A stretch of 64,000 nucleotides of DNA from a virus. The notes below the pieces were generated by a model. That model was given only the letters and a program-made list of their open reading frames with translations. It was not told the DNA's origin and made no database searches. Positions within the stretch are counted from its first letter, which is position 1, and each line of letters begins with the position of its first letter. The position numbers and the translations under genes were made by a program. This document shows, piece after piece, positions 45,068 to 59,056 of this stretch. The stretch lies in the IMG/VR virus record IMGVR_UViG_3300028845_000030; one strand, written 5' to 3'.

Positions 45068-45090
45068 TTTCCTTTAATTTTTTTATTTTG

Positions 45091-45163
45091 AGCTTTCTAT
45101 AGGAATTGAACCTACAACCTTAGCTTTACAAAAGCTCTGCTCTACCAGTTGAGCTAAGAAAGC
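45091..45163 (-). tRNA. tRNA-Thr (anticodon UGU)
   Basis: Hand-folded cloverleaf. The 7-bp acceptor stem is GCTTTCT/AGAAAGC. The D stem is GCTC/GAGC. The anticodon loop is TTTGTAA. The T arm is GTAGG-TTCAATT-CCTAT. Length 73 nt, with no encoded CCA. Confidence 0.85.
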
Positions 45164-50926: not shown

Positions 50927-51349
50927 ATGGTAAAGGTAACAGCAAATCCAGCAACAGGAGTGATTTTTACACCAAATGCACGTCCTGGTAAAGATGGTAA
51001 AACTTATGGTTTTATACGTCTTGAAGAAAACAAAATTGATCTTGATGGAGCTATTGGTTCTTTGAAGAAAACATCAATTTTGAAACAAATTAGTGCAGAA
51101 GCAGCTGCTCATTTGGTTGATGGTCAGGAGTTTCCTGGTCAAATCATATCAACTGACAGCCTTGTTCCTCATTTTGAAGGACAAAAGAACCTGCAAGCTC
51201 CAATTGCAAAAGGCAGCTCTGAATTAAGAGATGTACTTTGTGGTGGACAGAAAGTTTACCGTAAATATGAATTTACAAGTGATATGAGAAAATCATCTGT
51301 AAAACTTACTTATGATAAGGTTGCTGCTCCAGTTGAAGCTATCAACTAA
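50927..51349 (+). CDS. Hypothetical protein
   Basis: 140-aa ORF. Its composition looks somewhat richer in G+C than neighbouring genes. Confidence 0.65.
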   Translation: MVKVTANPATGVIFTPNARPGKDGKTYGFIRLEENKIDLDGAIGSLKKTSILKQISAEAAAHLVDGQEFPGQIISTDSLVPHFEGQKNLQAPIAKGSSELRDVLCGGQKVYRKYEFTSDMRKSSVKLTYDKVAAPVEAIN

Positions 51350-51594
51350 TTAACAAAGGTTCTGAATCCTTGTTAAAATTCTTATAGACATAATATTATT
51401 AGACGGGACTCTTTTAATATTGGTGTTGGTCAAACCACTCTATAAGAACAATGATCTTGTATTATCTATCGTATAAAAACCAAGCAAGAAAAATATACCA
51501 CGACCGAGTGGAGAAATTAGAATTATTGGGATACTAATTAGATAATTATTATTTAAGATTCTACATTTTCATAGGTGTAGTTTTGGGTCTAATA

Positions 51595-51982
51595 ATGAAC
51601 AATCATGTAGAAATATATGATTGTTCTTATTAGTTTTTCTTGTTTAAAAAATTTAACTCTATAACAACAAAGCATAAAGTTCTTTAATATATTAACCATT
51701 GAATCAACCGCAAGGTTTAATGTTTGGAGATATAATAACGGAAGGGATAATTCATCAAAAGACAGAGTTGCATTTAAGCATCCTGCTATTATGCCTGAGC
51801 AATTAGCATTAGACCATATTATAACTTGGAGCAATGAAGGAGAATTGGTGTGTGATATTTTTATGGGAAGTGGAACAACAGCAAAAATGGCTAAACAACA
51901 AAACAGGGATTATTGTGGATGCGAAATTAGTAGTGAATATTTTGAACTTATAAAAGAAAGATTAAATGGAACACCGTTTTAA
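51595..51982 (+). pseudogene. Degraded beta-class DNA (N6-adenine/N4-cytosine) methyltransferase; only the C-terminal half survives
   Basis: The frame opens only after a stop at 51662..51664 and reads ...FNVWRYNN...KHPAIMPEQLALDHII...GELVCDIFMGSGTT...CEISSEYFELIKERL. This covers the HPA region and SAM motif I. The N-terminal DPPY catalytic region is absent. The first ATG (51791) lies after the conserved HPA segment. A 12-codon ORF at 51595 (MNNHVEIYDCSY) may be the N-terminal remnant. Confidence 0.55.
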
Positions 51983-52046
51983 ACCTTTTATGTTTTTGAA
52001 AAAAACAAGGAGAGCGTGGGCTTTTTTCTTTTTTAATAATTTAATT

Positions 52047-52183
52047 GAACATAACGTTTGACGGTAAACTCTCGTTGCCGTTTTAAATACGAGAGAAAAA
52101 TTATCAAATTGCAACAAAATGAAAAACGAAGTAGAAAAGATTGATAAACCACAAGGCAATGGAGTTTTACCGTGTGTTAGCCG
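52047..52183 (+). repeat. attC-like folded repeat, copy d
   Basis: The 5' arm is AACATAACG-TTTG-ACGGTAAA (52048..52068). The 3' arm is TTTACCGT-GT-GTTAGCCG (52166..52183). Confidence 0.5.
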
Positions 52184-52325
52184 TAGTTTTATTGGTTTAT
52201 TTATGCACTACGATAATGGAGATATGGTGAACATACAAGATTTACCTAAACTTGAATATGAAAAATTCCTTGAACAAATGAACGCTTTAAGAATGGCGTA
52301 TATCACTTTGATTAGTCGTCCGTAA
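52119..52325 (+). CDS. Hypothetical small cassette ORF (start uncertain: 52119 or in-frame 52203)
   Basis: 68-aa ORF. The first ATG lies inside the loop of repeat d. The in-frame ATG at 52203 (MHYDNGDMVN...) lies just downstream of the repeat. Confidence 0.45.
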   Translation: MKNEVEKIDKPQGNGVLPCVSRSFIGLFMHYDNGDMVNIQDLPKLEYEKFLEQMNALRMAYITLISRP

Positions 52326-52330
52326 ATTAC

Positions 52331-52462
52331 CGCTACGTTTTGCAGCTACCAGAAGGGCGGGATTTTAACCACAAAAAACTTATAAAGATGAATGATAATT
52401 TAACCACAAATGCTTCTAACGAAGCCGAAAGCCCCGCTTTTTTGGTAGGTGCTGTTATAAGC
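52331..52462 (+). repeat. attC-like folded repeat, copy e (5' core degenerate)
   Basis: The 5' arm is CGCTACG-TTTT-GCAGCTACCAGAAGGGCGGG (52331..52361). The 3' arm is CCCCGCTTTTTTGGTAGGTGC-T-GTTATAAGC (52432..52462). Confidence 0.45.
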
Positions 52463-52600
52463 AGTGCTTCCAAAATGCCTTGCGGAAGTAACCATAGTTG
52501 CTACCATTGCAACGGATATTATTTTGGGTGTACATGGTTGAGCAGAATGTCAGAAGAAGAATTTGAAAAACACGAGCAACTTGTAAATGCAACGAAATAG
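52340..52600 (+). CDS. Hypothetical small Cys-rich cassette ORF (start uncertain: 52340, 52388 or 52475)
   Basis: 86-aa ORF whose 5' half coincides with repeat e. The C-terminal 41 aa (MPCGSNHSCYHCNGYYFGC...) lie downstream of the repeat. Confidence 0.45.
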   Translation: MQLPEGRDFNHKKLIKMNDNLTTNASNEAESPAFLVGAVISSASKMPCGSNHSCYHCNGYYFGCTWLSRMSEEEFEKHEQLVNATK

Positions 52601-52604
52601 CATT

Positions 52605-52701
52605 GCACTAACGTTGGGCGGCTTGGCGAAGGCTGCCTAACGGATGCTCAAATTTTCGCAACAAACTCAATGGCAGCTTTTGCCAAACCGCTGTTATGTG
52701 C
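52605..52701 (+). repeat. attC-like folded repeat, copy a
   Basis: The two arms pair segment by segment. GCAC-TAAC pairs with GTTA-T-GTGC. GCGG pairs with CCGC. TTGGC pairs with GCCAA. GCTGCC pairs with GGCAGC. The spacer is 5 nt (GTTGG) on the 5' side and 1 nt on the 3' side. Confidence 0.55.
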
Positions 52702-52738
52702 TGGGCGGTTTATCAGCACTAAATTAAATTAAAATACA

Positions 52739-52924
52739 ATGACAAGAGAATTAATACCAACACCAATTGAAAGCAAGGAGTATGAATTTGTACTCATCAA
52801 TGGATTAAAAGAAGAAAACGAAAAATTGAAAGAAGTTATTTCTGAAGTTCTTGAAGTATTAGATGGTAATGGAGTTCCAAATATTGAGTGGGTAAAAAAT
52901 CGTCTTTCGGAGGCGGTAAAGTAG
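52739..52924 (+). CDS. Hypothetical small acidic cassette ORF
   Basis: 61-aa ORF lying exactly between repeats a and b. Confidence 0.55.
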   Translation: MTRELIPTPIESKEYEFVLINGLKEENEKLKEVISEVLEVLDGNGVPNIEWVKNRLSEAVK

Positions 52925-52928
52925 CCTT

Positions 52929-53031
52929 GCACATAACGCTTTGCGGCTTTGTGTCTGTTTGCCCATCGCACAAAGTTTCAATTTACTACAAATATTAATG
53001 GGGCAAATAGGACAAAACCGCTGTTATACGC
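52929..53031 (+). repeat. attC-like folded repeat, copy b
   Basis: The 5' arm reads GCACATAAC-GCTTT-GCGG-CTTTGTGTC-TGTTTGCCC. The 3' arm reads GGGCAAATA-GGACAAAA-CCGC-T-GTTATACGC. Confidence 0.55.
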
Positions 53032-53086
53032 TGGCATGGTAAATTCAGCAGAAAACTAATTTGAAACACTAAAAGAAAAAATAAAA

Positions 53087-53665
53087 ATGAGCAAAGGGGA
53101 TTTTACAACATTAGGAGCATCGGCACACTCAAAAGAAGAGCGTGAAGAAAATGACTTTTATGCAACCGACCCAAAAGCATTAGAAATATTCCTTGAAGAA
53201 AGTGGGATAGAACTACGAAATGTTTGGGAGTGTGCTTGTGGTGAGGGGCATTTAGCGGAAGTTTTGAAAAAGAAAGGTTTACTTGGTAGGGCAAGTGATT
53301 TGATAGATAGAGGATACGGTGAAACTGAAAGTAACTTTTATTACTACTCTGAAATTTGGGATGGTGATATACTTACTAACCCACCATACGGAGATGCAAT
53401 GAAATTTTGCCAACATGCACTTGATTGTGTGGATGAAGGTAGTAAAGTAGTGATGTTAATGCGTATTCAATTTTTAGAAGGGCAAAGGCGTAAACCCTTT
53501 CTTTTGAAAAACCCACCAAAGTATGTGTATGTAAGCAGTAGCCGATTATTACTTGCAAAAAATGCAGACTTTGTGAAATACAATACACCATCAGCCAACT
53601 GTTATGCTTGGTACGTATGGGAAAAAGGATTTAAAGGCGAAACTACTTTACGTTGGTTTAACTAA
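53087..53665 (+). CDS. N6-adenine DNA methyltransferase (small phage-type, SAM motif before NPPY)
   Basis: Contains ECACGEGHL (SAM-binding motif I-like) and DILTNPPYG (catalytic NPPY). 192 aa. Confidence 0.75.
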   Translation: MSKGDFTTLGASAHSKEEREENDFYATDPKALEIFLEESGIELRNVWECACGEGHLAEVLKKKGLLGRASDLIDRGYGETESNFYYYSEIWDGDILTNPPYGDAMKFCQHALDCVDEGSKVVMLMRIQFLEGQRRKPFLLKNPPKYVYVSSSRLLLAKNADFVKYNTPSANCYAWYVWEKGFKGETTLRWFN

Positions 53666-53731
53666 AATGTGCGTGGGAAGATTTTTATTTTTTCTCTCAC
53701 AAATGTTGAATCGAAGAACGAATGTGGTGCT

Positions 53732-53832
53732 TGCGTATAACGGTGGCGATTGGCGAAGTAAAAGCCTTGTGCTGACGTTGAAGTTTAGCACTACACCTGA
53801 TGGCTTTTATTTTGCCAATTGCGTGTTAGCTG
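53732..53832 (+). repeat. attC-like folded repeat, copy c (followed by a T-run)
   Basis: The 5' arm reads GCGTATAAC-GGTGGCG-ATTGGC-GAAG-TAAAAGCC. The 3' arm reads GGCTTTTA-TTTT-GCCAAT-TGCGT-GTTAGCTGC. It is followed by TGTTTTTTTT. Confidence 0.5.
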
Positions 53833-53895
53833 CTGTTTTTTTTCTCTTTGATTTTCAACACTTTAAAAAATAATTTGAAAATATCTTTGAAAAAG

Positions 53896-53927
53896 TTTGC
53901 ACAATCAAAAAAAGCATTGTATATTTG
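53896..53927 (+). promoter_or_regulatory. Bacteroidetes sigma-A type promoter (-33 TTTG, -7 TATATTTG)
   Basis: TTTG at 53896..53899, then 20 nt, then TATATTTG at 53920..53927. The box ends 22 nt upstream of the ATG at 53950. Confidence 0.65.
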
Positions 53928-53949
53928 TATCAACAAAAACGGAAAAACA

Positions 53950-54144
53950 ATGACAACTCAAGAATTTAAAACAATCGCAACAAACAAATTAAACGCCCTT
54001 TCAACTTCTGATTTGATAATAGAAGTTAAAAAGTTAGCGAATGACTTTTCAACTGGTGCAGAATTAGTTTCTGATATAGCTATGGATATTTTAATGAACA
54101 GACTACCAGAAAATGAATTTGTAGAATTATGCAACACACTTTAA
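53950..54144 (+). CDS. Hypothetical small protein (start revised from 53848)
   Basis: The in-frame ATG at 53950 lies downstream of the promoter. The track start at 53848 would place the promoter and the tail of repeat c inside the coding sequence. Confidence 0.55.
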   Translation: MTTQEFKTIATNKLNALSTSDLIIEVKKLANDFSTGAELVSDIAMDILMNRLPENEFVELCNTL

Positions 54145-54641
54145 CACAGGGAGCAGGTAAGAGGCAGAAATGCCTTTTACTTGAACTCGAAAAACAAGCG
54201 ATAATTTGCCAAAACAAAGAAAATGGTCTTTGGATGCGTGGAGCATTGAGTTGCAGGTTAGCAAAAGATTTGCTACTACCAACAGATAAAACAATAGACG
54301 AACAGATAAAAGAACTTGAACCATCTGTTTTAAGATTAGAAAAAGAAGCGGAAAGAATAGGTGCAAAATTAAATGGATACGCAAGGCGAAAACTAAATAA
54401 ACTATATGAGCAAAAAAAAAAGAAATTTATGTGTGCTTTGGGTAATTGTAAAACTCAATGCTTTACTTGTTCAGAGGATGAAAAATGCGATAAAAAATGG
54501 GGTGGCACTCGGCAAGGGTCGGGTGCTAAACCTAAATACAAAGAAGAAACTAAAACAGTTGCTTTTCGCTGTCCATTGTCAAAAGTTGATGAGCTGAAGT
54601 TAGTTGTCAAATCTAAACTTTCGGAGTGGTTGGTAAAATAG
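54129..54641 (+). CDS. Hypothetical protein with a C-terminal ribbon-helix-helix-like segment
   Basis: 170 aa. The C-terminus GGTRQGSGAKPKYKEETKTVAFRCPLSKVDELKLVVKSKL fits an RHH pattern. Contains an A10 tract at 54412..54421. Confidence 0.5.
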   Translation: MQHTLTQGAGKRQKCLLLELEKQAIICQNKENGLWMRGALSCRLAKDLLLPTDKTIDEQIKELEPSVLRLEKEAERIGAKLNGYARRKLNKLYEQKKKKFMCALGNCKTQCFTCSEDEKCDKKWGGTRQGSGAKPKYKEETKTVAFRCPLSKVDELKLVVKSKLSEWLVK

Positions 54642-54678
54642 CAGCTAACTACTCGCTAACACCAACAACATATACAAG

Positions 54679-54963: not shown

Positions 54964-55146
54964 ATGGAAAACTGGAAAGAAACATCAAAAGAACTACCGC
55001 CTCAAAAGAAAATTGTTAAAACAAAAATTGATGATAATGATGGGATTAGAAATGAAGCAAACCTATTTTTATCAGGTAACTTATGGTTTATGGAGGATGG
55101 TAAAATGTATGTCTACTATAAACCTACTCATTGGAAATTTATTTAA
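54964..55146 (+). CDS. DUF551-like phage protein (tentative)
   Basis: MENWKETSKELPP...VYYKPTHWKFI resembles the W..v.d.LP ... THW pattern of DUF551. Confidence 0.4.
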   Translation: MENWKETSKELPPQKKIVKTKIDDNDGIRNEANLFLSGNLWFMEDGKMYVYYKPTHWKFI

Positions 55147-56746: not shown

Positions 56747-56986
56747 ATGAATAACGAAACATTAAATAAGATTATCAGAAAGAAAGTTATTTGGGCTGAA
56801 ATAAAAGCCAAAGAACAAGAATACCACAGATTACAAAAGCAAATTGATGAACTCGAACAAGCTAAAAAAGATGTAAGTTTTGAAGTTCAAAAAAGATTAG
56901 CTGAAAGTGAAAAGATTGGAGAGTGGATGGCTGAACGAGAATATGAAGCGTTAATGCGTGGGGAGGAAAAGCAAACTGACGTATAA
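56747..56986 (+). CDS. Small coiled-coil protein
   Basis: 79-aa K/E-rich ORF flanked on both sides by long noncoding stretches. Confidence 0.55.
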   Translation: MNNETLNKIIRKKVIWAEIKAKEQEYHRLQKQIDELEQAKKDVSFEVQKRLAESEKIGEWMAEREYEALMRGEEKQTDV

Positions 56987-57535
56987 CTGTTAGCTTTAAG
57001 CTGTTGTTTTTCACAATAGCATAAAGCGTAAGTTATAAGCTGTACAAGTTTTTACGAGTATTGTTTACATTTATTTTAAACTAATTCTATGAATTGTAAA
57101 AAATATGGGGGTGAGAGTTGGCTATTGATCAGATAGCATTTAATAATAGTAAGCAAGTGAGGCATTGTCACATAAATTTGTGCCTCTAATAAATTATGTG
57201 GTAAAATAGAATTGACAAAATCAGTTCTGACCAAGGATCAATCCTTGATGTTAAATTCTGTATGGAAAATAATATGTTGAAAAATACATATAAATCTCCT
57301 GTACAAGTTAGTTCTCTTGTAGAAGCTTAACATAGTAAAAGATCAAAAAGTGGTTTGTGAGTGGACTGAAGTATGGCGAAACTCTCTAATTCTTAGTTTA
57401 TAACTAAGTAATTTTGTCTATTTAGAAAAATAGAAAAACTTGTAGAAAATTATTATTAAACTATTTGGTGACCTGAAATCGTACTTCAGCACCTCCACAA
57501 TTAATTGATTATTAAACAGTTATAAGACTAAAAAT

Positions 57536-58971: not shown

Positions 58972-59043
58972 GGGGATGTAGGTAAATGAATATACTAATT
59001 TCCTTCTAAGAAATTGTTCTAGGTTTGATTCCTAGCATTCCTA
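58972..59043 (+). tRNA. tRNA-Arg (anticodon UCU)
   Basis: Hand-folded cloverleaf. The acceptor stem is GGGGATG/CATTCCT, with two G-U pairs. The D stem is GGTA/TACT. The anticodon stem ATTTC/GAAAT carries the loop CTTCTAA. The T arm is CTAGG-TTTGATT-CCTAG. Length 72 nt. Confidence 0.8.
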
Positions 59044-59056
59044 CTAAAACTATAAT

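Follow-up and report, generated by a model that had tools for sequence, protein, structure and literature searches.

Integron-like systems and a hairpin array on a Crassvirales-type phage

Integrons are regarded as bacterial devices. What has been reported from phages so far amounts, to our knowledge, to isolated pieces of integrons and a small number of CALINs (clusters of attC sites lacking an integrase). Here we examine a 64-kb stretch (64,000 nucleotides, referred to as the window) of the IMG/VR virus record IMGVR_UViG_3300028845_000030, in which five imperfect hairpins (d, e, a, b, and c, in order of position), all on the + strand, separate small + strand open reading frames (ORFs). We consider it likely that these repeats are recombination sites that fold as single strands and work like the attC sites of integrons, delimiting mobile cassettes in phages of Bacteroidota. 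The system appears to be a new variant of the integron principle that is widespread in such phages, and apparently constitutes a large, undescribed integron-like gene-shuffling family; a full-text literature search, whose coverage was incomplete, turned up no account of such a platform on phages.

Qi et al. 2023 (PMC9892861) described CALINs with methyltransferase cargo in virulent phages, a phage of Bacteroidota among them. One of their sites, P12002L_attC1, was predicted by HattCI only and not by the Infernal step (PMC9892861). This site is a short member of the family described here: our covariance model R1 matches it between two methyltransferase genes, with a sequence identical to the published primer. 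The hairpins resemble attC sites and CALINs in being imperfect palindromes with AAC/GTT outer boxes, with structure rather than sequence conserved and one strand folding better than the other. They also share with them regular ORF-site arrays, cassette-wise gain, loss, and movement, exchange in the AAC box, and methyltransferase cargo. The closest phage analogue is the promoter early stem-loop (PeSL) of T4-type phages, a sequence-conserved motif combining promoter and terminator that is thought to act via homology (PMC2839356, PMC4122927); its mechanism is different.

The window belongs to a tailed phage of the Crassvirales type. Portal, large terminase, and DNA polymerase are recognisable, and the major head protein is 38% identical to its crAss-like counterparts, in agreement with the crAss-like assignment of a first-pass annotation made from the letters of the sequence. 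That annotation had described an integrase-less cluster of attC-like sites organising promoter-less cassettes at 52047-53832. All five folded repeats are indeed present there on the + strand, its spacers and 3' heptamers were quoted correctly, and phmmer with E. coli XerC finds no tyrosine recombinase in the window, just as no integron integrase had been seen. The array reaches further than those limits, however, covering ~51.7-54.65 kb in ~6 units with another site at 56974-57046. What stands of the earlier interpretation is the orphan array and the kind of site, a structure-conserved recombination site; membership among canonical attC sites and the assumed polarity do not stand, and such a cluster on a phage is not new as such, given the CALINs already published for virulent phages. 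With five sites inside 1.8 kb, plus a box at 54649 and the site at 56974, all in a recombinase-free 64 kb, the window has the composition of a CALIN (at least 2 co-oriented sites within ~4 kb and no integrase nearby), provided that the sites count as attC-like. The hairpins sit in a GC-richer island, where G+C is 0.33-0.41 across ~52.0-54.9 kb vs 0.24-0.28 around it.

The hairpins belong to a structurally conserved family

The five hairpins share a plan in which a 5' box, (A/C)TTGCRYATAAC, is followed by G and 3-5 unpaired bases, then by a 20-35 bp stem that is copy-specific yet self-complementary and encloses an A-rich loop of 30-80 nt. On the 3' side the returning arm is followed by 0-2 bases and TGTTA(T/G). 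The five window copies have unpaired spacers of 4-5 nt on one arm vs 1-2 nt on the other. RNA folding of the + strand gave z-scores, relative to dinucleotide shuffles, of -0.9 for d, -4.1 for e, -3.9 for a, -2.4 for b, and -4.7 for c, clearly better than shuffled sequence in all but d. DNA folding gave the + strand the lower free energy in 5/5 elements, with several G.T pairs in the stems of a and c. An alignment of these five copies alone (MAFFT) was uninformative, and a stem scan restricted to Watson-Crick pairs misses b, d, and e.

The family becomes apparent on comparison with other viruses. A search pattern modelled on these two elements (a and b), TAACGNNNNGCGG...CCGCTGTTAT, matches at least 120 IMG/VR loci, and among the matches listed nearly all are hairpins of the same design, in sub-families that differ by inner stem. 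R1, built from 22 seeds (19 copies from elsewhere plus a, b, and c), finds 325 copies across 100 viral loci, in same-strand arrays with a spacing of ~0.3-1 kb and one or a few ORFs between copies. One such locus (L091) holds 14 ORF-element units, about five of them with DNA methyltransferases, and copies are also found in isolated Flavobacterium and Polaribacter phages. In the window R1 scores b at 87.8 bits (E 2e-18), a at 84.7 (E 1e-17), and c at 55.7 (E 7e-11), scores that are not independent because all three are among the seeds; the non-seed element e is marginal (E 0.14).

Covariation of the stems is strong. Across 124 distinct copies, pairing is seen in 97.1% of stem cells vs 73% after shuffling, a figure somewhat inflated because the alignment was fitted to the model, although slid controls and an independent RNAalifold run agree. 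Double-sided changes occur in 420 cells vs 125 +/- 8 in shuffles, and 11 of the 12 stem pairs change on both sides. The covariation score of 0.585 (vs 0.153 shuffled and 0.04-0.09 in slid controls) bears out the earlier suggestion of structure conserved through compensatory changes. TAAC and GTTA are invariant in 124/124 copies, as is a wobble between the G after TAAC and the T before GTTA (124/124). On the complementary strand this invariant G.T wobble is a C.A mismatch beside the exchange point. The flank consensus, RYATAAC / GTTAT(R)(Y) or GTTAGC, is one position off the RYYYAAC/GTTRRRY of integrons. Just outside TAAC and GTTA the bases are complementary by consensus only and show no covariation (they pair as often as in shuffles), which is what an exchange of partners at this point would produce.

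Units move between related phages, with junctions in the TAAC box

Element b is 79-89% identical to elements of 37 Baltic Flavobacterium phage records, and comparison of near-identical Flavobacterium phages reveals the cassette-wise indels that the first-pass annotation had named as the pattern to look for. The genomes of lillamy9-1 and lillamy9-3 are equally long and all flanks are 100% identical, with a 439-bp unit (hairpin plus two small ORFs) that lies at 5.64-6.08 kb in the former and at 2.04 kb, the hairpin-less end of the array, in the latter. Two units are absent from Snork6-2, which has an extra 1165 bp, as in sniff9-1, and a 500-bp unit is absent from Mumin6-3.

The recent junctions in these phages (lillamy, snork6-2, sniff9-1, mumin6-3) all lie in the 5' box, on the gene strand. 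The sequences shared by the partners are TTATAAC, ATAACG, ATAAC, CTTGCTTATAAC, TAACGTT, and a 16-nt stretch starting at TAAC; their common denominator is TAAC only. Breaks had been predicted at G|TTA in the 3' box, with each element paired to the ORF before it, and on both counts the data point the other way: the breaks lie in the 5'-box TAAC and the mobile unit is a hairpin with its downstream ORF. The window itself has a break at the same box. The cassette ending at 54649 is homologous to cassettes in three viral loci (L066, L273, L070) up to ...AATAGCAGCTAAC, after which four different sequences follow, with elements coming next in L066 and L273.

Shuffling by homologous or microhomology recombination of PeSL-like mobile regulatory cassettes, with no dedicated recombinase, could also give such patterns. 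Like PeSLs, these stem-loop repeats flank small accessory genes in hyperplastic regions that are shuffled as modules, and arrays with unit-wise indels at repeats are known from T4-type phages (PMC2839356, PMC4122927); moreover, lillamy has no recombinase and some junctions share 12-16 nt. Unlike PeSLs, the present family has covarying stems, site-specific junctions, and a linked recombinase, without enrichment of a promoter motif. At several junctions the partners have only 5-7 nt in common, always with the same TAAC, there is little homology between copies because their stems differ, and in one event a unit was cut out and pasted precisely at the terminal site. The 100 nt after an element contain the Bacteroidetes -7 promoter motif TAnnTTTG in 11% of cases vs 9% of control windows, which is no enrichment, and the arrays have a tight polar association with a tyrosine recombinase (below). 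Shuffling of the PeSL type is thus unlikely. The conserved tail after GTTAT was also considered as a promoter and rejected, TAnnTTTG not being enriched there.

A compact tyrosine recombinase and a terminal site accompany the arrays

When all ORFs of the fetched loci were searched by phmmer with E. coli XerC, small tyrosine recombinases were found adjoining arrays in several viral and cellular loci. In complete platforms the enzyme is 265-280 aa long and is encoded ~65 nt downstream of a hairpin-less terminal site. The best NCBIfam match of the array-linked enzymes is NF040815 ("site-specific tyrosine recombinase/integron integrase"), and the integron-integrase model TIGR02249 matches them in two pieces, below its cut-off. 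The best match in the Protein Data Bank is archaeal XerA. Vibrio IntI4 aligns in two pieces; residues 179-258 of IntI4 have no counterpart in the array-linked enzymes, from which ~48 aa of IntI-specific insertion are absent. In IntI4 this insertion reads the extrahelical bases of the site (2A3V structure). Its absence is in keeping with the design of the sites described here, where a one-sided bulge of 4-5 nt adjoins the exchanged box and no canonical extrahelical bases were identified. The insertion has been described as "not fully conserved" in an integron-like subgroup (Smyshlyaev et al. 2021). No classical IntI was seen adjoining any array, so that the partner envisaged by the first-pass annotation, a classical integron integrase, gives way to a small XerA/IntI-like enzyme found elsewhere, without the IntI-specific insertion.

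An alignment of five viral enzymes retrieved 335 loci from IMG/VR, 80 of which were analysed. In these, 149/149 R1 matches are on the recombinase strand and nearly all are upstream of the gene, with the last match within ~0.3-0.7 kb of it in many loci. An independent detector places 261 elements on the recombinase strand vs 14 on the other, and inter-element ORFs on the same strand in 85 cases vs 1. A hairpin-less attI-like site, AATTGCNNA-TAAC-TATTATATATA, is present in 62/75 loci, ~65 nt before the recombinase gene. This terminal site (also written AATTGCNNATAAC-TATTATATATA) keeps the 5' box of the cassette sites, and a fixed sequence replaces the hairpin. Recombinase, terminal site, and array, in this order and polarity, constitute the intI-attI-cassettes layout read along the bottom strand. 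As in a complete integron, a tyrosine recombinase gene stands at the array end, a hairpin-less terminal site shares the R box, and a cassette has moved to the array-terminal position (lillamy9-1 to lillamy9-3). Unlike in an integron, the enzyme is XerA-like, genes read towards it, and the platform resides on genomes of virulent-type and jumbo phages. Many of the recombinase-bearing IMG/VR contigs are 100-360 kb long. No integrase was found beside the arrays of two further viral loci (L038, L067), in the whole lillamy9-1 genome, or at the Bacteroidota chromosomal loci.

A relative of the array-linked enzyme with 37% identity occurs in the Polaribacter phages Freya_1 to Freya_10 (MT732463-MT732472), where the integrase gene is preceded by a variable segment of 0.07-4.2 kb among the ten isolates. 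Freya_6 (L333) and Freya_10 (L332) differ by 441 vs 3168 bp, with a left junction at ...TGTATAA|GG and a right end ~14 nt before the TAAC of AATTGTTGCTAAC, a box ahead of the integrase gene. The Freya elements are a divergent sub-type (ATAAG / GTTCTA), and the annotation of this gene as an integrase may reflect cassette shuffling rather than lysogeny. More generally, an "integrase" annotation beside such an array is weak evidence for a temperate phage.

Xer proteins are the closest relatives of this enzyme, and Xer systems offer a second comparison. XerCD with the CTX phage attP and the Xer/dif modules bring about the integration of entire replicons or act on 28-bp duplex sites that alternate in orientation. 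A folded hairpin substrate, which we infer here, is used at CTX attP, and the 5' box ...TGCNNATAA|C resembles the dif arm that ends ...GCGCATAA beside the cleavage point. These systems have nothing like the present arrays, in which long variable hairpins are combined with a terminal site of a dedicated kind.

The linkage to a tyrosine recombinase also bears on the idea that the repeats are decayed transposable hairpins, such as miniature inverted-repeat or palindrome-associated transposable elements derived from IS200/IS605. Many copies of imperfect palindromes with conserved ends would be expected of these. The elements are, however, strictly co-oriented and strictly intergenic in regular ORF-element arrays, all on one strand near the recombinase, the moved unit includes the adjacent ORF, and the flanks lack covariation. 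In the annotations and ORF lists inspected, which were not searched specifically for it, no HUH transposase appears, and a tyrosine recombinase is linked instead. We regard a transposon origin as extremely improbable.

The folding strand and its cellular relatives

Folding was compared between strands for the inner part of 108 unique pattern matches, which the pattern leaves unconstrained. The element strand is stabler than its complement in 91% of these copies (mean -1.26 kcal/mol), with 163 G.T pairs vs 25 on the complement. In phage arrays, 118 intervals between elements have their ORFs on the element strand vs 0 on the other, and the window is no exception.

Cellular genomes break this coupling between gene and fold. 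A genome scan recovered the same Bacteroidota sub-families in Pedobacter ginsengiterrae (L198), a Chitinophaga metagenome-assembled genome (MAG; L176), and other Bacteroidota genomes or MAGs (L168, L183, L202, L222, L237). The outer boxes are also identical in a sister family, which was recovered from MAGs of Altarchaeum, ANME-1, Thermoplasmata, Atribacteria, Dehalococcoidia, bacteria of the candidate phyla radiation (CPR), and Spirochaetes (loci include L131, L139, L143, L148, L153, L174, and L193). Its motif is ATAACG-4 nt-GCGG-ATAAAAG...CTTTTAT-CCGC-TGTTAT, and its inner fold is branched. Genes of the sister family are on the strand opposite the element in 10/10 unambiguous cases, and the element strand is again stabler in 95% of copies (G.T pairs 26 vs 1). 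That the strand bias is kept where genes are antisense argues for selection on the folded DNA strand. XerA-like recombinases above the NF040815 cut-off lie near sister-family elements, and one and the same enzyme clade may act on this family too, in archaea, CPR bacteria, and anaerobes.

Cellular arrays (L198 of Pedobacter, and L143) have the canonical integron geometry of an ORF followed by a site, with the AAC box of the folding strand at the far end, which makes the element strand the equivalent of the attC bottom strand. The attC orientation, with the gene antisense to the folding strand, is found only in these cellular arrays; phage cassettes carry their genes flipped relative to this arrangement.

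These data are central to the question of whether the hairpins are RNA-level signals only (intrinsic terminators, RNase III-type processing sites, or mRNA stabilisers), with rearrangements being incidental. Every phage hairpin is on the sense strand and uses pairs that would be G.U in RNA, a T-run follows c, and the long elements overlap start codons and could control translation. The same strand bias in the cellular sister family, whose genes are antisense to the folding strand, is not what an RNA signal would produce. In addition, the recent junctions fall exactly in the conserved boxes, the flanks outside TAAC/GTTA show no covariation, the arrays are associated with a dedicated recombinase and with a terminal site that has no hairpin, and the T-run is at c only. 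A purely RNA-level function is quite unlikely, slightly more so than shuffling of the PeSL type.

Orientation likewise bears on whether the phage simply acquired ordinary bacterial integron cassettes, with canonical attC sites served by a classical IntI, from a host integron. The higher G+C of the island and the occurrence of the same design in bacterial chromosomal arrays would agree with such an origin, and HattCI called P12002L_attC1 an attC (PMC9892861). Gene orientation relative to the site is, however, reversed in phage arrays (118 vs 0 and 85 vs 1, as above), which makes the phage cassettes a separate pool. The spacer geometry is non-canonical (PMC5027507), IntI1 failed on P12002L_attC1, and the linked enzymes lack the IntI insertion, with no classical IntI beside any array. 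Direct acquisition of host integron cassettes therefore seems very improbable.

A proposed gene-capture platform

Under the favoured interpretation as attC-like sites, the site read on the gene-sense strand would be ATTGCNN(A/C)TAAC-G, 3-5 unpaired nt, a variable covarying stem, a loop, 0-2 nt, and TGTTA(T/G), and the loop may hold the start of the next gene. Exchange would occur inside TAAC, at TAA|C of the folded gene-sense strand, comparable to the 5'-AA|C-3' cleavage of the attC bottom strand by IntI. With exchange at this position a cassette would consist of C-G-hairpin-ORF-...ATTGCNNATAA. The array-linked recombinase would do the work, with the folded single strand as its substrate, presumably excising cassettes as circles (hairpin x hairpin) and putting them back, with a preference for the terminal site. 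Phages that lack the enzyme, the window phage and lillamy among them, would be served in trans; as the window has neither a recombinase nor a recognisable attI-like site, movement of its cassettes, whose sites would still be active, would need a recombinase from the host or a co-infecting phage. Because no recombinase is encoded in it, the window is classed as a CALIN-like orphan array of ~6 units plus one stray site.

The cargo consists mostly of small ORFs without assignment, with many DNA methyltransferases (anti-restriction) among them and an occasional HNH nuclease. Genes point towards the terminal site, which leaves no room for expression logic of the Pc type, and as the -7 promoter motif is not enriched after sites, the cassettes are probably read through from upstream phage promoters. 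Taking this one step further, we lean towards the view that many phages of Bacteroidota, from 38-kb siphoviruses to the 100-360 kb contigs, possess a complete platform for gene capture, a phage counterpart of the bacterial integron, with the window as an orphan array of it. Its parts would be the compact XerA-like recombinase without the IntI insertion, the attI-like terminal site, long arrays of folded sites that have no canonical extrahelical bases, and genes on the folding strand. Anti-restriction methyltransferases and further small accessory genes would be exchanged among phages by this route.

Several observations weigh against an attC-like function or narrow it. In canonical attC sites both arms have a spacer of 5-6 unpaired bases and the L'' arm bears extrahelical bases (PMC5027507), whereas the spacer here is one-sided (5' arm 3-6 nt, 3' arm 0-2 nt across the family, most commonly 5 and 1). 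The two or three canonical extrahelical bases (G16 and T23/24 on the L'' arm), which the first-pass annotation had suggested looking for, were not identified; the alignments inspected, on which no systematic test was run, contain no conserved single-base bulges, and the extra bases are on the arm of the exchanged AAC, opposite to the canonical case. The invariant G.T beside the R box and a longer conserved box, ATTGCNNATAAC, are further differences from attC. Phage genes are on the folding strand, so that a site precedes its gene and may hold its start codon, as opposed to the upstream ORF of canonical cassettes. IntI1 recombined 5/6 phage sites, the exception being P12002L_attC1, which is the sole family member assayed so far (PMC9892861).

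Other reservations concern the evidence for mobility. All of it comes from other phages and none from the window, junctions are resolved to 4-16 nt of shared sequence, and lillamy9-1 rearranges yet its whole genome encodes no tyrosine recombinase. Two older junctions, with diverged flanks, lie at the 3' box (TTGTTA| and, between window e and the viral locus L284, GCTGTTAT|). These would fit occasional exchange on the other strand, and they mean that the hairpin is not inseparable from the downstream gene. The link between recombinase and site is one of genomic association, so that the pairing of the two is a prediction from gene order, and the R1 seeds come from one sub-family, with copies aligned by fitting to the model. 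Phage hairpins are also present in mRNA, where an additional role is possible. In the window, a tyrosine recombinase is missing from all 64 kb, counts of the attI-like motif TAACTATTATATATA are at chance level and no attI-like site is therefore claimed, element d is not detected as a whole by R1, and the 5' box of e has lost its TAAC. The window copies may be inactive relics, given the lost TAAC of e and the truncated gene at the left edge.

If the attC-like interpretation is correct, a whole lineage of integron-like platforms lives on phages, and the array-linked enzyme would fail the two-profile rule for integron integrases used by IntegronFinder (PMC9668308). It would explain the fast exchange of methyltransferases that decide host range among Bacteroidota phages, including Crassvirales relatives. 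In the Baltic Flavobacterium phages methyltransferase content is correlated with plating efficiency (PMC7077304), and the paper on these phages makes no mention of hairpins or cassettes. A natural recombinase/site pair that works without canonical extrahelical bases would also help in understanding how structure-specific recombination evolved from Xer.

Elements and cassettes of the window array

The left edge of the array is marked by a remnant cassette at 51722..51982 (+), a truncated N6/N4 DNA methyltransferase whose 5' end is missing (Pfam PF01555, E 1.3e-22, covering profile positions 143-221 of 221 only; phrog_67). Full-length homologues of this protein sit in arrays of three other viral loci (L044, L021, L077). 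Elements d and e, which follow, belong to a long-loop variant detected elsewhere by R1. Of such long elements, 28/44 take in the beginning of the following gene with their loop and 3' arm, vs 2/83 short ones, and contrary to the earlier picture of repeats separate from genes, the loops of d and e contain possible start codons for the ORFs that follow (ATG 52119 and ATG 52388).

Element d (52045..52183, +) has the 5' box TTGAACATAAC at 52045-52055, spacer GTTTG, and a stem ACGGTAAACTC.../...GAGTTTTACCGT followed by GT and GTTAGCC, with GTTA at 52176-52179. The ATG at 52119 in its loop opens a cassette ORF of 68 aa (52119..52325, +) with an alternative ATG at 52203 and no family match. Element e (52326..52464, +) has the decayed 5' box ATTACCGCTACG at 52326-52337, stem GCAGCTACCAGAAGGGCGGG/CCCGCTTTTTTGGTAGGTGC, then TGTTATAA, and GTTA at 52454-52457. 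It is ~93% identical to positions 6287-6436 of L284, where the 5' box is intact (TATAAC). The cassette ORF that begins with the ATG in its loop (52388..52600, +) encodes 70 aa, the likely true start being ATG 52476 (41 aa). Its first 23 codons are shared with L284 (6356-6436) and are element-derived, the ORF bodies parting after GCTGTTAT, and both ORFs also have an in-frame AAAATG a few codons past the junction. We considered the loop ATG and the conserved N-terminal codons of long elements as a candidate portable leader peptide.

Element a (52602..52707, +) carries the 5' box ATTGCACTAAC at 52602-52612, spacer GTTGG, a stem of 20 bp that includes G.T pairs, then TGTTATGTGCTGG, with GTTA at 52693-52696. 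Near-identical copies, conserved tail GTGCTGGGCGGTTTATCAGCACTAAATT included, are found in many IMG/VR loci. Elements of the a type also occur in two huge uncultured phages, at 579640-579762 of LR756502.1 (642 kb) and 590125-590187 of LR745206.1 (635 kb). A cassette ORF of 61 aa without a family match (52739..52924, +) leads to element b (52925..53037, +), which has the 5' box CTTGCACATAAC at 52926-52937, spacer GCTTT, stem GCGGCTTTGTGTCTGTTTGCCC/GGGCAAATAGGACAAAACCGC, then TGTTATACGCTGG, and GTTA at 53023-53026. The next cassette ORF (53087..53665, +) encodes a DNA methyltransferase of 192 aa (phrog_799, E 6.7e-55). Its homologues, with 47-57% identity, are found in seven viral loci (L046, L036, L020, L031, L100, L082, L118), most of which carry element arrays, the homologues themselves not being placed individually against the elements.

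Element c (53728..53839, +), also found as an inverted repeat, has the 5' box CTTGCGTATAAC at 53730-53741, spacer GGTG, and a 21-bp stem GCGATTGGCGAAGTAAAAGCC/GGCTTTTATTTTGCCAATTGC, then G-TGTTAGCTGCTG and the T-run, with GTTA at 53825-53828. Exact copies of TTGCNNNTAAC occur in the 64 kb at b and c only, and with one mismatch allowed the count across the window is no higher than chance. The last array unit (53895..54641, +) consists of a promoter-like site, an ORF at 53950-54144, and an ORF at 54129-54641. The promoter-like site (~53895-53928), read from the sequence, is of the Bacteroidetes type (TTTG, ~17 nt, TAtaTTTG), and stands ahead of ORF 53950; no other of its type was seen within the array. 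Over its C-terminal 40-60 aa, ORF 54129-54641 matches cassette proteins of L070, L273, and L066 with 85-93% identity. A cassette-end box, TAGCAGCTAAC, at 54639..54649 (+), with no hairpin after it, forms the right-hand end of the array.

Surroundings of the array

A sixth site (56974..57046, +), short and solitary, lies 2.3 kb past the array and reads CGTATAAC-TGTTA-stem-GTAA-GTTATAAGCTG. R1 scores it at 24.7 bits (E 1.3e-3), and it was recovered independently by the Watson-Crick stem scan. Between the array and this site, ORF 54964-55146 has a homologue inside the array of another viral locus (L298). A permissive Rfam search of 50.5-56 kb returned no relevant family, only chance snoRNA-like matches, and megablast of 48-58 kb against 50,697 phage records gave no match.

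The stop codon of ORF 56747-56986 falls within the 5' box of the sixth site, and directly after the site there is an ORF-free stretch of ~470 nt (57060-57530). To the left of the array, ~350 nt of non-coding sequence (51350-51700) between ORF 50927-51349 and the truncated methyltransferase contain nested inverted repeats, for example 51442-51455/51617-51630 and 51395-51404/51587-51596. Two tRNA genes lie farther out, tRNA-Thr(TGT) at 45090-45163 (-) and tRNA-Arg(TCT) at 58972-59044 (+).

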